This document shows positions 4,542 to 26,356 of a stretch of 64,000 nt of DNA, in pieces; positions within the stretch are counted from its first letter, which is position 1; every line of letters begins with the position of its first letter. The DNA is taken from NCBI GenBank assembly GCA_047286485.1, contig JBJBBH010000005.1, forward strand, positions 186,056 to 250,055, in the 5' to 3' direction. Position numbers and translations under genes: made by a program. The DNA comes from Synechococcus sp. GTDB lineage: Bacteria > Cyanobacteriota > Cyanobacteriia > PCC-6307 > Cyanobiaceae. The notes below the pieces were generated by a model. It had not been told where the DNA came from. It did no database searches and worked only from the letters and a program-made list of their open reading frames with translations.

Positions 4542-5564
4542 ATGGAAACTCCTGTTCTGGAGCTGGATCTGCCCGATCCTGAGCAGGACGACATCAGCAC
4601 CATGGAGTTTCTGGCTCGCTTGGAACAGGCCTGGGCTGTCTGTGACAAGTTCGATCTACAGACTGAGATCTGGCGCGGAAAGATCCTCAAGGCCGTTCGC
4701 GATCGTGAAAAGAGGGGGGGAGAAGGGCGTGGTGCCGGTTTCCTGCAGTGGCTGAGGGAGCGGGAGATCAGCAAGACCCGTGCATATGGATTGATCCAGC
4801 TCGCGGAGTCTGCGCAGGAGATGCTCGGCGAGGGCGTGCTCGAGGAGTCCAGCGTCAATCAGTTCTCCAAGCGAGCCTTTATGGAAACCGCGCAGGCGGC
4901 TCCGGAGGTGCAGCTGATGATTTCCGAGGCTGCTAATGAAGGTCAGGAGATCACCCGCAAGCAGGTCCGGCGTCTGACGGACGAGTTCATGGCCGCCACC
5001 AGTCCTCTGCTGCCTGAGGAGATCAGGCAGCGCACCCAGGAGAATCTGTTGCCTCCGAAAGTGGTGGCTCCGCTCGTGCGTGAGCTGGCGAAGCTGCCGG
5101 AGCCACAGCAGGATGACTTGCGCAAGGTGCTGCGCGATGAGCCCGAGCTTGATCGCATCAAGGATGTGACCCATACCGCTCGCTGGATCACCAAGGCCAC
5201 GGAATCCAGTGTCGCCGTCCGCGCCTTCCAGCAGGGTGAGCTGGATCTCGAAAAGGCCATGCAGGAAGCGCAGCGGCTGGATGCACTTGGATTGCTGGCT
5301 GATGCGGTCGGGCAGGCCCAGTCTCTGGAATCAGCAGTGCTCAAGCTGCACACCTCGTGGCGACGACTTGGGGGCTTGCAGGAACGGCTCTGGGTGGAAA
5401 GTGGCAGCAGTACGCCCTATCTCCGCGACGTTCTCTCGGCGCTGCAGAGTCTCAGCGGTGCGACGCTGCGCGTCTCTCTTGGGGAGCTGGCCGGCGGTAA
5501 GCGGGTGCGACTGCAGTTGGTTGAGGAATCACCGGATCAGCTGGAACCCCCTCCGATCCCCTAG
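4542..5564 (+). CDS. Conserved cyanobacterial hypothetical protein, possible DUF3102-like N-terminal helical domain
   Basis: Long ORF with host-like codon use; G.IL..VR...G.FLQWL.E.EIS..RAY.LI pattern; upstream of recQ on the same strand. Confidence 0.75.
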
Positions 5565-18358: not shown

Positions 18359-20353
18359 TTAATGCGCTGGGCTCTGCGGCATCAGACAGCGATGGAACGG
18401 GCGTCGTGACGGCAGGAGGAACAGCCGGCAGGTCAGGGCGATGAAAGCTCGCCATTCAGGGGGTGCCTGACGTTCAGGCCAGCAATGAGGCCGGCAGAAC
18501 AACCAGAGAATCAGGCGTTGTCGAGTCTGATCGTTGAGGTCCTGCCAGCGAAGCGCCAGTCGGTTGCCGTGGATCCTCTCCAGCAGAACCGGTATTGGCG
18601 GCACGTCGTCTGTCCAGCGCAGTCGCCTGATGTTTGCTCCCGTTGTCATTGGCATGGCCAGTTCCAGTTCCACACCGCTTTCGCTGAGAGCCGTGAGTCG
18701 ACAGCGTTGCCACCGCTGTTGGCTGTCTTCCAGCTCTGCGGGCAAGCAAGCGGCTTGCCAGGGGGTGGGATCCACTGCGGCTGGATCCCAGCAGGCGCGC
18801 AATGCGATCCAGATGCTGAGCAGGTTGATCACGGCCCAGGTGAGTCCCAGCGGGCGGGAGTTGAGGAGCTCGCTGTTCAGCGGTTCCGTCATCGTCACCA
18901 GTCCAAACACGTTGATCAGGTTCAGCAGCAGCAGTCCCAGCAAGGGGATCACCAGCACGAGACTGAAGCTGCCCCGATTGCGTTTCTGGTGTTTCGGCGT
19001 GACTCGAAAACCACCGATATGTCCCATCAGATTGGCGCACACTGTCAGCGTCAGCGGCACCGTGAGCACCCAGCCGGTGAGTTCGCTCAGCAAGGATGCG
19101 CGCGAGCCGCGGTTGATCCAGCCGATGCTGAGAAGAAGAGTGGCCCAGAGCGGCACCAGCATGCTGAGGGCTTCGCTGCTGGTGATCAGGATGGGCAACG
19201 TGCCGAGCAGGCCGTAGCTGAGCGGCATCAGCATCAACACCAGCCGGGGCATGTTGTTGAACCAGTGCACAACGCCTTCGAGGTAAGCCATCCGCTCTCC
19301 AAAGCTGAGGCCGCCGGGGCCCAGTGGCCCGTCAGGCAGTCGCAGGCTTTGCAGCGTTCCATTCGCCCAGCGCTGGCGCTGACGCACAAAGTCAGCCATG
19401 GTTTCAGCGGCCAGGCCTGCACTGAGCTTCTGTTGGAGATAAAGCAGTTTCCAGCCCCTGTGCCGCAGCCGAAGCCCCGTCACAAAATCCTCAGAGATCG
19501 CCTGTTCCCTAAACCCTCCGACCGAATCAATGGCGCTGCGTCGAGCCAGAAAAGCAGTGCCCGCGCAAACCACAGCGCCCCAGCTGTCGCGGACGGGTTC
19601 GATCCAGCGATAGAAGCTCTCCTCGTCGGGAAGTAACCAACGTTCCATGCCCAGATTCCGCATCACCGGATCGGCATTGATGAATGTTTGCGGGGTCTGA
19701 AGCAAACCCACCGACGGGTCCTGGAGAAAGCCGATGCAGTTTTCGAGAAAGTCCCTCTGCGGAATGAAGTCAGCGTCGAACACTGCCACCAGCTCACCGC
19801 TGCAGTGGCGCAGGCCGTCATTGAGATTGCCGGCTTTGGCATGGGTGCGGGCCGGACGATGGCGGTAATGGCATCCGAGTCTGAGAGCCAGCTCTTTCAC
19901 GTCGTCTCGGCCGCTGTCATCCAGCACCCACACGCCATGGTTGCGGTAGTTCTGGTGAGTACAGGCCACCAGGCTGCGCTCCAGCACCTCAAGGGGTTCG
20001 CCGTAGGTCGGCACGAGAATGTCGACCATCGGCCGCCAGTCGCTGGCTTGCCATTGTTTGTTCAGCTGGTCCATCGTGCTGCGACGGTCGGGGAAGCGGC
20101 GCCAGGCCAGCCATAACGGCAACAGGCCCGACAGCAAAAGCCAGGCTTCGGCTGTGAGCAACAAAAGGCTCAGCCCCGTGCTCAGGCTCGTGCTCAGGTT
20201 GAGGCTGCTGGTGATTCGCCAGTGCAGATACCTGGCCGTCAGCAGGCTGATCAGCAGAATCAGACTGCGGCGCTTCCAGATGGGGCTTTGCTGCTCAGGG
20301 TGTCTCTTCAACCAAAGGGGCCAGAACAGCACCAAGAGCGGCAGCCAGTTCAA
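18359..20353 (-). CDS. bcsA: Cellulose-synthase-like GT2 glycosyltransferase with degenerate PilZ-like tail
   Basis: VDILVPTYGEP, LDD, HAKAGNLN, FDADF, QTPQ.F, CAGT, SEDF.TG, QRQRWA.G. Confidence 0.85.
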   Translation of the reverse strand: MNWLPLLVLFWPLWLKRHPEQQSPIWKRRSLILLISLLTARYLHWRITSSLNLSTSLSTGLSLLLLTAEAWLLLSGLLPLWLAWRRFPDRRSTMDQLNKQWQASDWRPMVDILVPTYGEPLEVLERSLVACTHQNYRNHGVWVLDDSGRDDVKELALRLGCHYRHRPARTHAKAGNLNDGLRHCSGELVAVFDADFIPQRDFLENCIGFLQDPSVGLLQTPQTFINADPVMRNLGMERWLLPDEESFYRWIEPVRDSWGAVVCAGTAFLARRSAIDSVGGFREQAISEDFVTGLRLRHRGWKLLYLQQKLSAGLAAETMADFVRQRQRWANGTLQSLRLPDGPLGPGGLSFGERMAYLEGVVHWFNNMPRLVLMLMPLSYGLLGTLPILITSSEALSMLVPLWATLLLSIGWINRGSRASLLSELTGWVLTVPLTLTVCANLMGHIGGFRVTPKHQKRNRGSFSLVLVIPLLGLLLLNLINVFGLVTMTEPLNSELLNSRPLGLTWAVINLLSIWIALRACWDPAAVDPTPWQAACLPAELEDSQQRWQRCRLTALSESGVELELAMPMTTGANIRRLRWTDDVPPIPVLLERIHGNRLALRWQDLNDQTRQRLILWLFCRPHCWPERQAPPEWRAFIALTCRLFLLPSRRPFHRCLMPQSPAH

Positions 20354-21354
20354 GCCAGCTGCTCCTGCTGTTCTTGGAGCAGTGTCAGCGCCTGGTCAGG
20401 GGTGGGTACACGCATCAGTTTCTGGCGGAACTGGGACGCTCCAGTGAATCCTGTGCAAGTCCAGCTCATGTGTTTCCGCGCGATCAGCAGACCGTGGTCT
20501 CCGCGCGACTCAACCAGTGCCTGCAGTTGTTCTGAGGCCAGCATCAGGCGTTCCCGCGGGCCTGGGGTCAGGGGAATGGCACGACCGCTCAGCGCCGCGT
20601 CGATCTGCCCCACCAGCCAGGGAGCACCCATGGTTCCTCTCCCCACCATCACACCATCGGCGCCGGTTTTCTCAAGACAGCGCCTCGCGGCCTCAGGGCT
20701 GTTGACATCGCCGTTGGCGATCACCGGAATGCTCAGGGCCTGCTTGACAGCGGCAATGGCTTCCCAGTCTGCGGATCCACTGAAGCGTTGTTCCCGCGTG
20801 CGGCCATGCAGGGTCAGCAACGTGGCACCGGCGCTCTCCAGCTGCCTGCACCAGGCCACCGCTGCGTCACGGGACCCTTCAATCTGCGGTTGATTGCACC
20901 ATCCCAGGCGTGTCTTCACCGTGACAGGCACGCGTACCGCCGATGCCACGGTTTCCACGATCCTGCAGGCCAGGTCAGGATCGCGGATCAGGCCGCTGCC
21001 TCCCCCTTTGCGGGCGATTTTTCGGACGGGGCACCCCATGTTGATATCGATCAGAAAGGCACCTGCTGCCTCGGCTCGTCTGGCTGCATCAGCCATCGCC
21101 TCGGGCCTGTGATCGAACAGCTGGACGCCGATCGGCCCGGTCTCCTCACTCAGCTCCTCGACTTTGCCCCTGCCGTGGCCAAGTTCAAGGCTGGTGGCGT
21201 TCACCATTTCGGTGAACAGCAGAGCATCCGGTGCCCAGCGTCTCACCAGAGCTCGAAAAATTTTGTCGCTGACTCCTGCAAGCGGAGACTGCAGCACTTT
21301 GCAGCGCAAAATGCGCTCCACGCCTCGTCCGCTCAGCCGCAGATCCCTGACCAT
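20350..21354 (-). CDS. dusB: tRNA-dihydrouridine synthase
   Basis: QSPLAGVSD..FR, TEMV, IDINMGCP..K, TVKTRLGW, LHGRTR, ANGDV, VMVGRG. Confidence 0.93.
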   Translation of the reverse strand: MVRDLRLSGRGVERILRCKVLQSPLAGVSDKIFRALVRRWAPDALLFTEMVNATSLELGHGRGKVEELSEETGPIGVQLFDHRPEAMADAARRAEAAGAFLIDINMGCPVRKIARKGGGSGLIRDPDLACRIVETVASAVRVPVTVKTRLGWCNQPQIEGSRDAAVAWCRQLESAGATLLTLHGRTREQRFSGSADWEAIAAVKQALSIPVIANGDVNSPEAARRCLEKTGADGVMVGRGTMGAPWLVGQIDAALSGRAIPLTPGPRERLMLASEQLQALVESRGDHGLLIARKHMSWTCTGFTGASQFRQKLMRVPTPDQALTLLQEQQEQLA

Positions 21355-21406
21355 TGGCGCTTGATTGAGTTCATCCATCCTCATCACCTGCTGGTCTCAA
21401 GCCGTA

Positions 21407-21988
21407 TCAGGCGGCCGATTCATCCAGTCCGAGCCGGGAGCGGGTGTCACGAACCTGGGCTTCGATGGCATTGCGGAGCCAGGCCTGGTTCGACCAGTCT
21501 TCATGCAAGGCCAGTCTCTCCACCTCCTGCATCAGGTCCAGCGGCAGCTGAAGGTTCACGGTCTGAATGCTGTGGGGACTGGCCAGTCCTCCCTGGTGGG
21601 GAGCATCGAGATGGAGCACTTGCACCTTCAACACCTGAAGCCTGGTGCCGATTCGGGGGAGGCGGTTGCGCACCTGTCGCACCGTTAATCGCACAGGGCA
21701 ACCGGCACGAATGCGCTGCAGTCCTCTGTTGCCAAGCGGTGCGTCACGGCGGTCGGCGAACACCGGGGTGCTGATGCCGGTTTTGCCGCTGTAGCTGAAG
21801 CACACCCTGCCTTGTCCATCCCAGGGAGGGGGTGACACTTCGCCGCTTTCCCTGTCGTTCAGCAGACGACGGCGATCACGTCTGGCCGTTGCCATCACCT
21901 CGTCTGGAAGCCGAAAGATGAGACGCTGCAGGTGTTCATCACCAACAAGCGACGTCTTCGCTTCCAGAGATGTGTCGAAGACGTACAT
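21407..21988 (-). CDS. Putative T7-like (cyanopodovirus gp2.5-type) SSB OB-fold fused to a C-terminal ribbon-helix-helix domain
   Basis: PPPW..G...FSY...PVFAD...I..GCPVRL...Q....GT.L.V..VQV..L matches the recalled podophage SSB pattern; C-terminal TVNLQLPLDLMQEVERLALHEDWSNQAWLRNAIEAQV fits RHH. Confidence 0.6.
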   Translation of the reverse strand: MYVFDTSLEAKTSLVGDEHLQRLIFRLPDEVMATARRDRRRLLNDRESGEVSPPPWDGQGRVCFSYSGKTGISTPVFADRRDAPLGNRGLQRIRAGCPVRLTVRQVRNRLPRIGTRLQVLKVQVLHLDAPHQGGLASPHSIQTVNLQLPLDLMQEVERLALHEDWSNQAWLRNAIEAQVRDTRSRLGLDESAA

Positions 21989-22070
21989 GCATCAGAAGGT
22001 AATGGAGGCGCCGCAGGAGATGTTGTGGCATTTCTGCTGGCGCAGTGGGTGTGGATGAGAGCATGCGGCG

Positions 22071-22535
22071 ATGTCCTCACACTCCTGGAGCCTGAACCGG
22101 CCCCTGCTGATGGCGATCCTTGAGGATCGTCTCAGCGACCAATTCGTGGCGTCGCTGGTCTGGGAGCGATTGGAGTATCTCCCCCCTGAGGACGGTGAGG
22201 GGCCATGGCTGGCAGGCCCCGCAACGCCCGCTGCCTGGAGAGAGGCTTTCCCGGAGGCTCCGCAGGTGATTGCTTCGCGGCCTGCTTCGGTGCGTCTGAC
22301 CCGGTCGATTCCCAAGGAATCCAAACAGCTGCTGAAGCAACAGCTGCAGTTCGGCGGCTATCGAATTACCGAGCTTTATCCAAGGCGCACGCGCCGTGCC
22401 ACTGCGGTGAACTGGTTGCTGGCCTGGTTGGTGTCAGCCGGCGAGGTGCTGCCGGAGGAAGGAGCTCTGCCGCCTCTGCTCGATGCTCCGGCGGATCCGG
22501 TGCGGGGGCACCCCGGCGATCCGCCGGTGGAATGA
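22071..22535 (+). CDS. DUF1823-family cyanobacterial protein
   Basis: IL.DR.SD.FV..LVWERL.Y, W...FPEAP.VI..RPA.V.LTRSIPKE.KQLLK.QL.F.GY.I.ELYPRRTRRAT.VNWLL. Confidence 0.8.
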   Translation: MSSHSWSLNRPLLMAILEDRLSDQFVASLVWERLEYLPPEDGEGPWLAGPATPAAWREAFPEAPQVIASRPASVRLTRSIPKESKQLLKQQLQFGGYRITELYPRRTRRATAVNWLLAWLVSAGEVLPEEGALPPLLDAPADPVRGHPGDPPVE

Positions 22536-22538
22536 GCC

Positions 22539-22922
22539 TCACACCTGAATCACCACCTTGGTGCCCTTGAGCGTGTTCTCAAACAGCCAGCGGGCCTGAT
22601 GCGTGGGCATGCGCACGCAGCCATGGCTGCGGGGAACGCCGAAGGCCTGGCCGGCGTCTTCCTGCCAGGGAGCTCCATGCATGCAGATCATCTCGTTGGC
22701 GGTGATGCACATCGCATAGGGCACGCCGGGTGCGACATAGCCCCGGCCCCGCATGGTGACGGAGCGATATTTGGTCAGCACCTTGGCTTCTCCCGTGGGG
22801 GTTGGCGTGGATGCCTTGCCGGTGCTCACGGGGATGACCCGCACGATCTCTTGGTTCTTGTCGTAGACGGTGAGCTGTTGATCTGAGAGGTCCACCACCA
22901 GGGTGGCGATCAGTTCGAGCAT
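22539..22922 (-). CDS. L,D-transpeptidase (YkuD) family protein
   Basis: VDLS.Q.L, PVSTG...TPTP.G, HGAPW...FG.PRSHGCVRM. Confidence 0.88.
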   Translation of the reverse strand: MLELIATLVVDLSDQQLTVYDKNQEIVRVIPVSTGKASTPTPTGEAKVLTKYRSVTMRGRGYVAPGVPYAMCITANEMICMHGAPWQEDAGQAFGVPRSHGCVRMPTHQARWLFENTLKGTKVVIQV

Positions 22923-25413: not shown

Positions 25414-25680
25414 GTGAGCGCTGAGGGTTATCTCAATCACCCCACCTTTGGGATGCTCTACAGAGTGGCCCCTGCCGGGGAAGGTCGCGATGTGTACGCC
25501 ACGTTGTACGCCCAGCGCATGTTTTTCCTCGTCACCTTGCAGCCTCGAGGCGCTCAGTTCGAGGTGATTCCCTACCTCGACGCACGCCATCACGCTGAGC
25601 TGAATCTCGCCCGGCGTCGCCGGGATGCATCGGAGGATTACGGCAGCTGGAAGCAGTTGTTCGATCAGACCTTCATCTGA
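25414..25680 (+). CDS. pipX: PII-interacting protein X
   Basis: YLNHPTFGMLY.V, YATLYAQRMFFLV, FE.IPY.DAR. Confidence 0.95.
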   Translation: MSAEGYLNHPTFGMLYRVAPAGEGRDVYATLYAQRMFFLVTLQPRGAQFEVIPYLDARHHAELNLARRRRDASEDYGSWKQLFDQTFI

Positions 25681-25702
25681 CCATGCAAGACGGACAGCTC
25701 GG

Positions 25703-26356
25703 GTGACGGAGATTCAGAGTCGCTGGCGCCAACTGCAGCAGCGTCTCCCACAGGGAGTCAACCTGCTTGCTGTCAGCAAGACGCAGCCTGCTTCGGCCAT
25801 TCGTGAGCTTGCCGCTTGTGGTCAGCTCGATTTCGGTGAAAGTCGTGTTCAGGAGGCTTTGCCCAAGCAAGAGGCTCTGTCAGACCTCACTGATCTGCGC
25901 TGGCATTTCATTGGCCGCCTGCAGGCCAACAAGGTGCGGGCGGTGGTGAAGGCGTTCAGCTGGATCCATTCCATCGACTCCATGGCATTGGCGGAGCGTT
26001 CATCCCGGATCGCTCTCGAAGAGGGGCGTTGCCCTTCGGTGTTGTTTCAGGTGAAGCTGAGGTCTGATCCCTCCAAGGGTGGCTGGGACCCTCAGTCACT
26101 GAAAGAGGCCTGGCCTGTGCTGCGTCAGTTGCCAGGTCTGAAGGCCTCAGGGCTGATGACCATGGCCCCGCTGGGGCTGGACAGTGATGAGCGTCTGGGC
26201 CTTTTCAGGGATTGCCGCCATCTCGCCGATCAGCTCGATCTGGCTCAGTGTTCGATGGGGATGAGCGGTGATTGGCCGCAGGCAGCAGCTGCCGGAGCGA
26301 CCTGGGTCCGTGTGGGATCAGCTCTGTTTGGTGAGAGGCCGCCCGTGAACTCCTGA
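25703..26356 (+). CDS. pipY: YggS/PLPBP-family PLP homeostasis protein (PipY)
   Basis: [46 protein letters not shown]; GTG start after pipX. Confidence 0.92.

Follow-up and report, generated by a model that had tools for sequence, protein, structure and literature searches.

Introduction

The acidic ...YDF tail of phage SSBs recruits the phage polymerase and helicase, and in T7 gp2.5 the tail and ssDNA are rivals for binding to the basic cleft. The hallmark of the T7-type SSB family is an OB barrel with a long capping helix right after strand b2, and an aromatic residue at the start of strand b4 (Tyr158 in T7, Trp150 in Enc34) stacks on ssDNA and is needed for ssDNA binding (PMC5686142). Tail-mediated contacts are present in crystals of the family, and the Enc34 SSB without its acidic tail gained dsDNA binding (PMC5686142). 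SSBs of the gp2.5 type have been described as virus-specific (PMC4889955). The SSBs of the MPP-A cyanopodoviruses (S-CBP2, S-CBP42, SS120-1/P-SSP9, P60 and Syn5) are encoded in the phage replication module (RNAP, SSB, endonuclease, primase–helicase and DNAP), and their matches to phrog_112 ("Gp2.5-like") have E values from 6e-13 to 7e-17.

A ribbon-helix-helix (RHH) domain spans about 45 residues and consists of a beta-strand, helix A, a turn with S, T or N where helix B begins, and helix B; RHH proteins typically repress or tune their own promoter. In HicB-type antitoxins and in PF12441 (CopG_antitoxin), a partner-binding domain is joined to a C-terminal RHH. In the dusB–fis operon of E. coli, dusB shares its transcript with the gene of a small nucleoid protein that binds DNA. 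Here we describe a marine Synechococcus gene that encodes a gp2.5-type OB domain followed by an RHH domain and that lies directly upstream of dusB.

Results

The gene between dusB and DUF1823

The window, the whole 64-kb stretch of Synechococcus DNA that was analysed, contains a coding sequence at 21407–21988 on the minus strand that was defined from the ORF list and the sequence; it begins with ATG, ends with a stop codon at 21407–21409 and encodes a 193-residue protein that we refer to as OB–RHH. Its parts, all on the minus strand, are a gp2.5-type (T7-type) OB-fold domain (residues 1–128; 21605–21988) recognised by tblastn, hhalign and Foldseek, a flexible linker with the fusion junction (residues 129–137; 21578–21604) marked by low pLDDT and by alignment, and an RHH domain (residues 138–193; 21410–21577) recognised by a profile match to the PDB, stand-alone relatives and predicted helices. 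Pfam matches on both flanks place the gene, as first described, between dusB, the gene for a tRNA-dihydrouridine synthase (20350–21387, minus strand, likely start at the ATG at 21378; Dus PF01207, E 7e-89), and a divergent DUF1823 gene (22071–22535, plus strand; PF08853, E 3e-40). A family-2 glycosyltransferase gene (cellulose-synthase-like, GT2; 18359–20353, minus strand) follows dusB, and YkuD and der are further neighbours at the locus. OB–RHH homologues fall into 66 clusters, nearly all of 193 residues. The named homologues are all annotated "hypothetical protein", and a literature search for gp2.5 with an RHH, or for the protein accessions, found none.

The OB domain derives from the family of cyanopodovirus SSBs

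A tblastn search of 50,697 phage records matched the N-terminus only to annotated SSB genes of MPP-A cyanopodoviruses (S-CBP2, SS120-1, S-CBP42, P60 and Syn5), with E down to 1e-10 and 32–39% identity over residues 2–127/145. When the host family was aligned with the cyanopodovirus SSBs by hhalign, the probability was 99.6% (E 1.3e-23, 129 columns, 38% identity). The mean identity between OB–RHH and the MPP-A SSBs is 29–33%, and up to 40%, over 127 columns with equal motif order, and the two groups have in common the core hydrophobic aromatics Y2, F4, F25, W56, F64, Y66 and F77 and a long helix directly after b2. Single-sequence searches of the OB part against Pfam, PHROGs, NCBIfam and the PDB returned nothing significant, but these negatives carry no weight because bona fide cyanopodovirus SSBs also match no Pfam model.

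In a template-free AlphaFold2 model the OB part has a pLDDT of 80–94. Foldseek with this model ranked three phage SSBs above bacterial SSBs: that of S-CBP2 (E 2.3e-11), that of Enc34 (2.3e-4) and T7 gp2.5 1je5 (3.5e-4); generic OB similarity to the anticodon-binding domains of aaRS appears lower in the list. The best PDB matches, T7 gp2.5 (1je5, PF21265) and Enc34 SSB/DUF2815 (5odj, 4klk, 4jg2; PF10991), have E values of 2e-4 to 1e-3 and the same predicted fold class, but T7 gp2.5 is only about 16–18% identical to OB–RHH, which matches no Pfam model. The predicted topology is b1-b2-long helix-b3...b4-b5 (E2-8, E20-26, H29-43, E61-67, E98-108, E114-124), and the modelled helix after b2 corresponds to the capping helix that is the family hallmark. 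Together the searches confirm a likeness to T7-type and cyanopodovirus SSBs far beyond chance. The preliminary description had recognised gp2.5 and cyanopodovirus SSB motifs in order along the N-terminus and had named an OB-fold/gp2.5 structural match as its test; the motifs align as claimed, and that match is present by Foldseek, tblastn and hhalign.

Several features of a replication SSB have been lost

The tails of the phage SSBs carry a net charge of -5 to -8 (T7 -19) and end in YDF, VDF or GDF. OB–RHH instead ends in the RHH, with ...ESAA at its C-terminus, and the corresponding tail charge across the host family is -4 to +2. At the position equivalent to T7 Tyr158, the window protein has N108 and five other host-family sequences have R (alignment A3), whereas the residue is Y in 5/5 isolated cyanopodoviruses and in 6/7 metagenomic phage-type SSBs. 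Two features of T7 gp2.5 and the Enc34 SSB, the ssDNA-binding aromatic (Tyr158/Trp150) and the polymerase- and helicase-binding tail, have no counterpart in OB–RHH.

The surface has changed as well. The OB domain of the window protein is Arg-rich (20 Arg, net charge +9, pI 10.9); its net charge is +7 to +13 in the host family versus about 0 in phages, and it has 5–7 aromatics in the host family versus 11–15 in phages. Compared with the MPP-A SSBs, which have an acidic tail with a terminal YDF, a GKFNN loop and surface aromatics, the tail is absent, the loop is deleted and the aromatics are replaced. Both helix A (RRDRRRLL) and the D.EG loop (DRRD) are now basic, and the pI is about 11 versus 6–9. 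Relative to the phage SSBs, the OB domain is under weaker constraint in loop L12 and under stronger constraint on an invariant DRRDxPL segment; L12, a conserved loop in phage SSBs, is less constrained than any other part of the host domain. Because the tail and the stacking aromatics are lost, the OB domain is Arg-rich and the constraint has shifted, we conclude that OB–RHH is not a canonical replication SSB. For the same loss of aromatics and the strong basicity, sensing of ssDNA in the manner of an SSB cannot be assumed.

The C-terminal domain is related to stand-alone picocyanobacterial RHH proteins

The C-terminal layout is a strand candidate IQTVNLQLP, helix A (150–162), a D164-W165-S166 turn and helix B (168–186). 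A profile of this domain and its stand-alone homologues (A5) matched the CopG-family regulator 6iya in the PDB at E 2.2e-4 and 7etr at 6e-4, and one stand-alone homologue, P0096, matched the PHROG "Arc-like repressor" at E 2e-5. Single-sequence scores are below threshold, at 13.9 bits for CopG_antitoxin (cut-off 28) and 13.2 for RelB-like (cut-off 50), and at 16.7 for P0096 against RHH_1 (cut-off 20.5). The pLDDT of the domain is 62–75 overall and below 65 at strand 142–148, which is absent from the monomer model; this is as expected for a strand whose pairing requires dimerisation. Residues typical of DNA contact, in the D-W-S turn and the WLRNAIE helix, show little or no variation. The putative strand's DNA-facing positions 143, 145 and 147 differ between clades and are sometimes Pro, which could reflect either operators that co-evolve with the protein or a lack of any sequence-specific reading. 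These matches and the two predicted helices support a C-terminal RHH, which had been called convincing at about residues 142–180 in the preliminary description.

The closest RHH relatives are not phage proteins but 57-residue stand-alone CopG/Arc-type proteins of low-light Prochlorococcus: the C-terminus of OB–RHH is 44–62% identical to those of the LLIV clade (MIT 9313 group), found in MIT 9313, MIT 1342, MIT 0702 and others. The RHH half had no match in 50,697 phage genomes. The pattern LP..L..EVERLA......WLRNAIE..V is invariant in the fusions and the stand-alone proteins. Phage and host sequences part at linker residues 129–137, where the phage acidic tail begins, and the N-terminus of the stand-alone proteins (MPVN...) aligns opposite host S137-P138-H139-S140; the pLDDT is below 50 at residues 131–141. 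Since its RHH is most like these picocyanobacterial proteins, OB–RHH is a phage–host chimera. The stand-alone genes occupy an unrelated locus where no partner can be recognised, whereas in OB–RHH the RHH is C-terminal to a 128-residue OB domain. The unrelated locus led us to reject the Prochlorococcus gene as an ancestral occupant of the dusB slot.

OB–RHH resembles the HicB-type and PF12441 regulators in the C-terminal position of its RHH, but it has no neighbouring toxin and no sequence relationship to HicB. For a type II antitoxin (CopG/RelB-like) role, we found no adjacent cognate toxin gene, as dusB and DUF1823 flank the gene in all loci, and the neighbours of the Prochlorococcus stand-alone RHH gene contained no recognisable toxin domain.

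The combination of a duplex binder with two OB folds in a dimer raises an accessory role in DNA repair, recombination or replication restart, in which the RHH would hold duplex and the OB domains single strand at ss/ds junctions, perhaps with the strand-annealing activity of gp2.5 retained. Its ancestry fits such a role, in that the phrog_112 description covers SSBs and annealing proteins. However, the ssDNA-stacking aromatics of the gp2.5 family (PMC5686142) are lost, loop L12 has become the least constrained part of the OB domain, and no repair genes are nearby. In infected WH7803, OB–RHH is also not listed among the late SOS-like genes (umuCD group), in a comparison made without locus-tag mapping (PMC7885011). 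We consider this role improbable.

A resident host gene under purifying selection

We examined 15 Synechococcus loci, comprising the window, 11 genomes and 3 metagenome contigs, and in 15/15 the gene immediately precedes dusB and is oriented divergently to DUF1823. This slot is conserved across lineages diverged to 48% identity. It is empty in Cyanobium, Vulcanococcus and Prochlorococcus, outgroups in which dusB directly abuts the DUF1823 intergenic region. The carriers belong to marine Synechococcus subcluster 5.1 (WH7803, WH7805, WH8017, BMK-MC-1, MIT S9503, S9507, S9451, UW105 and UW140); absence from other marine 5.1A clades (e.g. WH8102 and CC9605) is read only from a GTDB species scan, which returned 11 loci, and from cluster names. 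The GC content of the gene is about 0.61, similar to its flanks, and GC and GC3 follow dusB in each genome. The dN/dS is 0.11–0.23, overall and for each domain, and the gene evolves about twice as fast as dusB. A tblastx comparison with five phage replication modules found only the SSB and no other phage gene in the window. The fusion was not found among 2.9 million viral contigs, and a plasmid search gave no match.

In bootstrap trees the host clade was monophyletic in 78–81% of replicates, and it was nested inside the phage SSBs in 76% of all replicates and in almost every tree where it was monophyletic; the trees were built by a distance method and fix no exact phage sister group. We are highly confident that OB–RHH is a chimeric, vertically inherited host gene that joins an MPP-A-like SSB OB core to a resident RHH, inserted between dusB and the promoter region. 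It is solitary and chromosomal, unlike the SSB gene in its phage replication module. In this account, the OB core of a gp2.5-type SSB from an MPP-A-like, T7-like cyanopodovirus was inserted in the ancestor of a subset of marine Synechococcus (5.1) and joined in frame to a stand-alone RHH gene of picocyanobacteria, which displaced the acidic ...YDF tail. These data bear out the preliminary description on host-like GC and on the absence of any other detectable phage gene, and they support its reading of a captured podophage gp2.5-type SSB whose acidic tail was exchanged for an RHH. They go against the refutation that it had specified, namely that the fusion is a phage gene or an unselected remnant: the viral contigs are empty of it, the slot is fixed and dN/dS is 0.11–0.23.

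A decaying prophage remnant without host function has some points in its favour. In MPP-A cyanopodoviruses an integrase lies 0.4–0.8 kb upstream of the SSB gene, which makes integration followed by decay a plausible entry route, and one metagenomic copy, P0066, is frameshifted. But the frame is intact at about 193 residues in nearly all 66 clusters, dN/dS is low in both domains, the composition is host-like, the window contains no further phage gene, and the slot is kept across the diverged lineages. The reading is contradicted by these observations. In its variant form, host-to-phage transfer, it conflicts with the nesting of the host clade in phage SSBs and with a phage family that spans all T7-like viruses. 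We regard either form as scarcely credible.

The relationship to podovirus SSBs also suggests an anti-phage decoy, in which the super-basic, tail-less OB cleft would capture the ...YDF tails of incoming podovirus SSBs, or form mixed complexes with them, and so keep the phage polymerase and helicase from being recruited; dimerisation or tethering to DNA would fall to the RHH. OB–RHH derives from exactly its would-be target, whose phage relatives all retain the YDF tail, and the host OB domain is strongly positive with no tail of its own. The roughly twofold faster evolution relative to dusB is compatible with this role, as is the competition of the T7 tail with ssDNA. The tail contacts in family crystals (PMC5686142) point the same way. 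The idea is weakened, however, because WH7803 and WH7805 carry the gene even though the MPP-A podoviruses S-CBP42 and P60, which have the SSBs most closely related to OB–RHH, were isolated on these strains. Infection by podovirus S-SBP1 up-regulated 32 WH7803 genes, and OB–RHH is not listed among them, by inference without locus-tag mapping (PMC7885011). PADLOC matched neither the protein nor its neighbours, there is no defence-island context, and selection is purifying rather than diversifying. Overall we judge a decoy unlikely. A fuller version, a novel type of constitutive anti-podovirus factor in which the tail-less super-basic SSB core uncouples phage SSBs from polymerase and helicase, is similarly doubtful, and so are its details, with the RHH anchoring a dimer trap or, alternatively, with co-assembly with phage SSBs on DNA. 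If true, this would amount to immunity through molecular mimicry, with a viral replication protein as the model, in one of the main primary producers of the ocean.

A probable operon with dusB

The 82-bp divergent intergenic region between the OB–RHH gene and DUF1823 (21989–22070) is the candidate site of the promoter or promoters and of any RHH operator. On the minus strand, 7 nt upstream of the OB–RHH ATG, is a TACCTT hexamer (21996–22001) of the -10-like form TAnnnT. Such a hexamer is present in 15/15 orthologous loci, 6–7 nt from the ATG where checked, while the rest of the region is not conserved between clades. The position of the hexamer beside the ATG suggests a leaderless or near-leaderless transcript. 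A strict sigma-70 scan found no promoter, and Rfam found nothing in 19.5–23.5 kb of the window.

The spacer from OB–RHH to dusB is about 15–36 nt in loci with an assigned start, a conserved GAGG/GAGA-ATG precedes dusB (12 loci shown), and no terminator-like site was found between the two genes. Judged only by this spacing, dusB is probably co-transcribed with OB–RHH. The start of GT2 and the stop of dusB share 4 nt, making GT2 the probable third gene of the unit; it is present in 10/11 genome loci.

We searched for an operator by aligning 15 upstream regions and scanning seven of them for repeats, and found no direct or inverted repeat that is shared across clades. In the window the intergenic region has one 7-bp inverted repeat, CGCCGCA/TGCGGCG, at 22009–22015 and 22064–22070. 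A seemingly conserved block, catcgtttcat, was rejected as an operator as it is probably N-terminal coding sequence of DUF1823.

The constant neighbour and probable co-transcription also suggest that OB–RHH is an RNA or tRNA partner of DusB, a basic OB dimer that would present tRNA in a Trbp111-like manner while the RHH merely dimerises. The Arg-rich OB surface and the low-ranking Foldseek similarity to aaRS anticodon-binding OB domains agree with this. The adjacency to dusB is not independent evidence, though, since a single ancestral insertion explains it. DusB works without OB–RHH in Cyanobium, Vulcanococcus and Prochlorococcus, and in the RHH the residues of the DNA-contact type, which lie in the D-W-S turn and the WLRNAIE helix, vary little or not at all. 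A tRNA-partner role is therefore very unlikely.

Discussion

Most likely, we infer, OB–RHH is a dimeric DNA-binding regulator or nucleoid-type protein that heads the dusB operon. Taken as a whole, a domesticated chimera with such a role is the best explanation that we have, and we give it about an even chance of being right. The way in which it would work, an RHH dimer on dsDNA aided by basic OB domains and acting in promoter control, is put forward more tentatively. The RHH would make the protein an obligate dimer, whose beta-ribbon of two strands would sit in the dsDNA major groove. Two flexibly tethered, strongly basic OB domains, with neither the autoinhibitory acidic tail nor the conserved stacking aromatics, may add non-specific nucleic-acid contacts. 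As the promoter-proximal gene of the probable OB–RHH–dusB–GT2 operon, with an mRNA that is probably leaderless, OB–RHH would repress or tune its own promoter and thereby control dusB, and perhaps DUF1823 on the divergent side as well. A wider role, as a small, basic DNA-binding protein of the nucleoid type, may come in addition, and OB–RHH would no longer serve as a replication SSB.

The dusB–fis operon of E. coli offers a parallel, in that a small basic DNA-binding dimer shares an operon with dusB, as proposed here. The gene order relative to dusB is reversed, however, and there is no sequence relationship between OB–RHH and Fis.

OB–RHH is a cellular copy of a gp2.5-type SSB in the ecologically important marine Synechococcus; it is fixed at a single chromosomal site, its composition has ameliorated and purifying selection acts on it. 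It traces a course of domestication in which the replisome-recruiting tail and the ssDNA-stacking residues were lost and a positive surface was gained, together with fusion to a resident DNA-binding dimerisation module and placement ahead of a housekeeping gene. It is a clear-cut case, found in nature, of a host putting a viral replication protein to its own use, and it marks out an uncharacterised protein family whose domain architecture is new. WH7803 can be cultured, its transcriptomes have been published and podoviruses have been isolated on it, which makes the gene a tractable entry point into the roles of captured phage proteins, be it in regulation, nucleoid organisation or phage interference.

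Genomic setting of the OB-RHH gene

The ORF at 21407–21988 on the minus strand (193 codons, ATG start) encodes a protein with an N-terminal OB domain (residues 1–128) and a C-terminal ribbon-helix-helix (RHH) domain (residues 138–193), hereafter the OB-RHH protein. On the same strand, dusB (Pfam Dus, E 7e-89) lies 19–28 nt downstream, and a DUF1823 gene is divergent across an 82-bp intergenic region. The farther neighbours are a YkuD L,D-transpeptidase gene (22539–22922), der, cbiQ, pipX and a cellulose-synthase-like family-2 glycosyltransferase gene (GT2, 18359–20353), whose first 4 nt overlap the end of dusB. At 25414–26356, pipX (PF12058) overlaps the start of a downstream PLP-binding YggS/ylmE-type gene, a pair that looks like the known cyanobacterial pipX–pipY arrangement. 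We found no tRNA gene within 6 kb of the OB-RHH gene and no Rfam match around it. As the preliminary description had noted, the GC content near the gene is host-like (~0.61, as in the flanks) and phage genes do not accompany it: tblastx with five phage replication modules detected only the SSB in the 64-kb window.

The N-terminal half is a T7-type SSB homologue

Scanned as a single sequence against Pfam, PHROGs, NCBIfam and the PDB, the OB part gave no significant match, but these silent scans carry no weight, because bona fide cyanopodovirus SSBs have no Pfam match either. A tblastn search of 50,697 phage genomes gave hits in ten records, the GenBank and RefSeq copies of five phages (S-CBP2, SS120-1, S-CBP42, P60 and Syn5), all members of the MPP-A clade of cyanopodoviruses (PMC9860041). 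Every match fell on an annotated ‘ssDNA binding protein’, with 32–39% identity over residues 2–127/145 and a best E of 1e-10, and the SSB motifs that the preliminary description had listed align with the phage proteins as claimed. Comparison of profiles by hhalign (32 host-family versus 14 cyanopodovirus-type SSB sequences) gave a probability of 99.6% and an E of 1.3e-23 over 129 columns at 38% identity; the phage relatives belong to phrog_112, ‘Gp2.5-like ssDNA binding protein and ssDNA annealing protein’.

The predicted fold agrees with this descent. A template-free AlphaFold2 model of the 193-aa protein has a mean pLDDT of 77.7, with 80–94 across most of the OB part, and its predicted order is b1, b2, a long helix (29–43), b3, b4 and b5; in T7-type SSBs the hallmark is a long helix that follows b2 immediately and caps the barrel (PMC5686142). 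The best Foldseek matches of the model in the PDB were Enc34 SSB, T7 gp2.5 (1je5) and two DUF2815 structures (E 2e-4 to 1e-3), and bacterial SSBs appeared in the list only at E > 0.06. In BFVD the best match was the SSB of Synechococcus phage S-CBP2 (E 2.3e-11, 33% identity). The resemblance to gp2.5 proposed earlier is thus upheld by sequence and profile searches and, for the fold, by the model.

A picocyanobacterial RHH completes a chimera

The C-terminal part is very probably an RHH domain, as had been proposed, at the level of profiles: its profile matches the CopG-family regulators 6iya (E 2e-4) and 7etr (E 6e-4), while single sequences stay below the Pfam threshold. When 1.84 billion representatives were searched exhaustively with HMMER, only 31 proteins emerged: members of the host family, SSBs of the phage type, and a few small proteins whose match is confined to residues 142–193. 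These last, each 57 aa long, come from low-light Prochlorococcus (MIT 9313, MIT 1342, MIT 1201 and MIT 0702) and are annotated ‘conserved hypothetical’ or ‘CopG-like’. The stand-alone homologue P0096 matches a PHROG ‘Arc-like repressor’ at 2e-5 and falls just under the threshold of Pfam RHH_1. The motif LP..L..EVERLA......WLRNAIE..V is invariant across the fused and stand-alone sequences, and the stand-alone N-terminus MPVN aligns opposite S137-P138-H139-S140 of the fusion. In the AlphaFold2 model, helices 150–162 and 168–186 are separated by a D-W-S turn; the RHH strand is unformed in this monomer, and residues 131–141 are a low-confidence linker.

Among sequenced phage genomes the RHH half found no match (E >= 8), and its closest relatives are the stand-alone Prochlorococcus proteins. 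A phage OB core has thus been joined to a picocyanobacterial RHH, which makes the OB-RHH protein a chimera. The Prochlorococcus genes occupy a locus unrelated to the OB-RHH slot and have no recognisable toxin domain beside them, so we read their products as orphan regulators. In the LLIV loci (L020–L022), small unannotated ORFs surround the RHH gene (5001–5174), and a gene for a PfkB kinase is nearby.

A resident and selected host gene of phage origin

The OB-RHH gene is a resident, selected gene of its hosts. The family comprises 66 clusters at 90% identity, nearly all of exactly 193 aa and called ‘hypothetical protein’ by every source that gives a name. Named carriers are WH7803 (CAK22991.1), WH7805, BMK-MC-1, CS-197, MIT S9507, MIT S9451, UW105 and UW140. 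A pattern-based scan with one genome for each GTDB species, on which the apparent absence from other marine Synechococcus clades (such as WH8102, CC9605 and CC9311) rests, found 11 loci, all marine Synechococcus. One of these (L008, CAXQPR010000132.1) is labelled ‘MAG: Salipiger bermudensis’, has full Synechococcus gene order and is almost certainly mis-binned. The position between dusB and DUF1823 noted at the outset recurs in all 11 loci, and the order GT2–dusB–OB-RHH–divergent DUF1823–YkuD–der–cbiQ–pipX holds in 11/11 loci and three metagenome contigs, save that L009 lacks GT2. In four outgroup loci (Cyanobium LEGE 06113, Vulcanococcus limneticus, Prochlorococcus MIT 1307 and one Prochlorococcus SAG) the site is empty and dusB and DUF1823 abut, 24–98 bp apart. 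The GT2 and YkuD genes are also missing from the equivalent neighbourhood of Cyanobium, Vulcanococcus and MIT 1307, and the dusB region has thus received three separate lineage-specific genes.

In each genome, the GC (0.61–0.70) and GC3 (0.67–0.86) of the gene track the dusB values. Among pairs that are not saturated, a dN/dS of 0.11–0.23, alike in the OB and RHH parts, shows purifying selection; the ratio resembles that of DUF1823, and dusB has about half of it. A scan of 2.9 million viral contigs did not find the fusion. Selection and synteny together contradict a decaying remnant, and the fusion is not an ordinary phage gene. Individual sequences depart from the norm. In the Synechococcus SAG AG-673-F03 the start codon is ACG (L002:4882–4884; ATG in all other orthologues), either a single-cell assembly error or a lost start. 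P0066, a 189-aa homologue on a 38.5-kb metagenome contig, is fully divergent past about residue 138, which looks like an RHH-removing frameshift in an occasional pseudogene or an assembly error. The UW140 protein (L010:5001–5597; 198 aa) has a 5-residue insertion in the b4–b5 loop that resembles a short duplication (PRLGKPRLGTVGS).

Neighbour-joining with T7 as the root places the host family in one long-branched clade (78–81% bootstrap). This clade is nested inside cyanopodovirus-type SSBs in 76% of all replicates and in almost every replicate in which it is monophyletic; the tree is distance-based, its support is moderate and it does not fix the phage sister group. In the literature (PMC4889955), T7-type SSBs are distributed over phages and giant viruses and are said to have no close homologues in cells. 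Together with residency and selection, these results establish transfer from phage to host, and the capture of a phage SSB suggested previously is supported by the nesting, the conserved slot and the selection. The MPP-A podoviruses SS120-1 (L013), S-CBP42 (L014) and Syn5 (L016) carry an integrase gene 0.4–0.8 kb upstream of the SSB gene; an integrated MPP-A phage that left its SSB behind is a plausible, if unproven, entry route.

Loss of SSB features in the OB domain

Among the phage SSBs, those of isolates and most of the metagenomic ones carry an acidic tail whose last residues are YDF, VDF or GDF, whereas the host proteins end in the RHH, the exchange that had been proposed. Tail swapping may be recurrent in the gp2.5-like family: two phage-type SSBs, P0088 and P0091 (L030), have another helical C-terminal domain in place of the tail, and a third (P0075, L029), which adjoins a T7-like DNA_Packaging_2 gene, lacks the YDF tail.

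The host OB domain has 16–23 Arg, a net charge of +7 to +13 and a pI of ~11; that of the phages is mostly near neutral (range −6 to +6), with a pI mostly of 6–9 (range 4.9–9.3). Aromatic residues number 5–7 in the host versus 11–15 in the phages. The buried ones are retained (Y2, F4, F25, W56, F64, Y66 and F77), and four phage-aromatic positions are altered or deleted. One of these four corresponds to T7 Tyr158/Enc34 Trp150, a residue that stacks on ssDNA and is needed for binding (PMC5686142); its equivalent is Asn in the window protein and Arg in the other five host-family sequences aligned. Loop L12 falls in relative conservation from 1.05 in phages to 0.52 in hosts, where only the helix–b3 loop is less constrained, and segment 76–86, with an invariant DRRDxPL, stands at 1.33 in hosts versus 0.93 in phages. 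A repair or annealing factor at ss/ds junctions would be a natural role for an SSB descendant, but the ssDNA-stacking residues are lost. Removal of the acidic tail alone is enough for Enc34 SSB to bind dsDNA (PMC5686142), so by analogy the tail-less, more basic host protein is unlikely to discriminate strongly for ssDNA.

The uncompensated basic cleft, in a protein that mimics the phage’s own SSB, would also suit an anti-podovirus decoy or ‘tail trap’. This reading is weakened by the carriers WH7803 and WH7805, on which S-CBP42 and P60 were isolated, by the lack of a PADLOC defence signature, and by the apparent absence of the gene from a list of 32 genes that podovirus infection induces in WH7803 (PMC7885011).

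Promoter, operon and proposed function

The spacer between OB-RHH and dusB is ~15–36 nt in loci with an assigned start, has a conserved GAGG/GAGA–ATG and contains no terminator-like element that we could find. Insertion of the OB-RHH gene split dusB from the divergent promoter region that adjoins it in outgroups, and the new gene’s promoter probably now drives dusB. A TAnnnT hexamer (21996–22001 in the window) is present in 15/15 orthologues and ends 6–7 nt before the ATG where checked, which suggests a leaderless or near-leaderless mRNA. Elsewhere the upstream region shows no conservation from clade to clade, no conserved operator-like repeat was found in the orthologous upstream regions, and the predicted DNA-facing strand residues 143, 145 and 147 vary between clades.

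Adjacency to dusB might point to a tRNA-binding partner of DusB, but it is the product of one ancestral event, and DusB functions in relatives that have no OB-RHH protein. We tentatively favour a mechanism in which the protein dimerises through the RHH, which also binds duplex DNA, and two basic OB domains on flexible linkers would contact nucleic acids non-specifically or engage a partner. Encoded by the first gene of a probable operon, the protein would most likely autoregulate its promoter and through it control dusB and GT2, and perhaps DUF1823. It may also act as a small basic nucleoid-type protein.

We are highly confident of the identity and evolutionary history of the protein. By descent and modelled fold its OB half belongs with T7-type SSBs, but it lacks three of the functional features that define them (the stacking aromatic, the acidic aromatic-ended tail and the replication-module context), and the annotation ‘SSB’ is therefore unsuitable. 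Its C-terminal half belongs to the RHH superfamily at the profile level, below Pfam thresholds. The combined architecture was found neither in family libraries (Pfam, PHROGs, NCBIfam and PADLOC) nor in literature searches. We rate the OB-RHH protein as a new family with a new architecture, and its gene as a cellular exaptation of a virus-hallmark protein.
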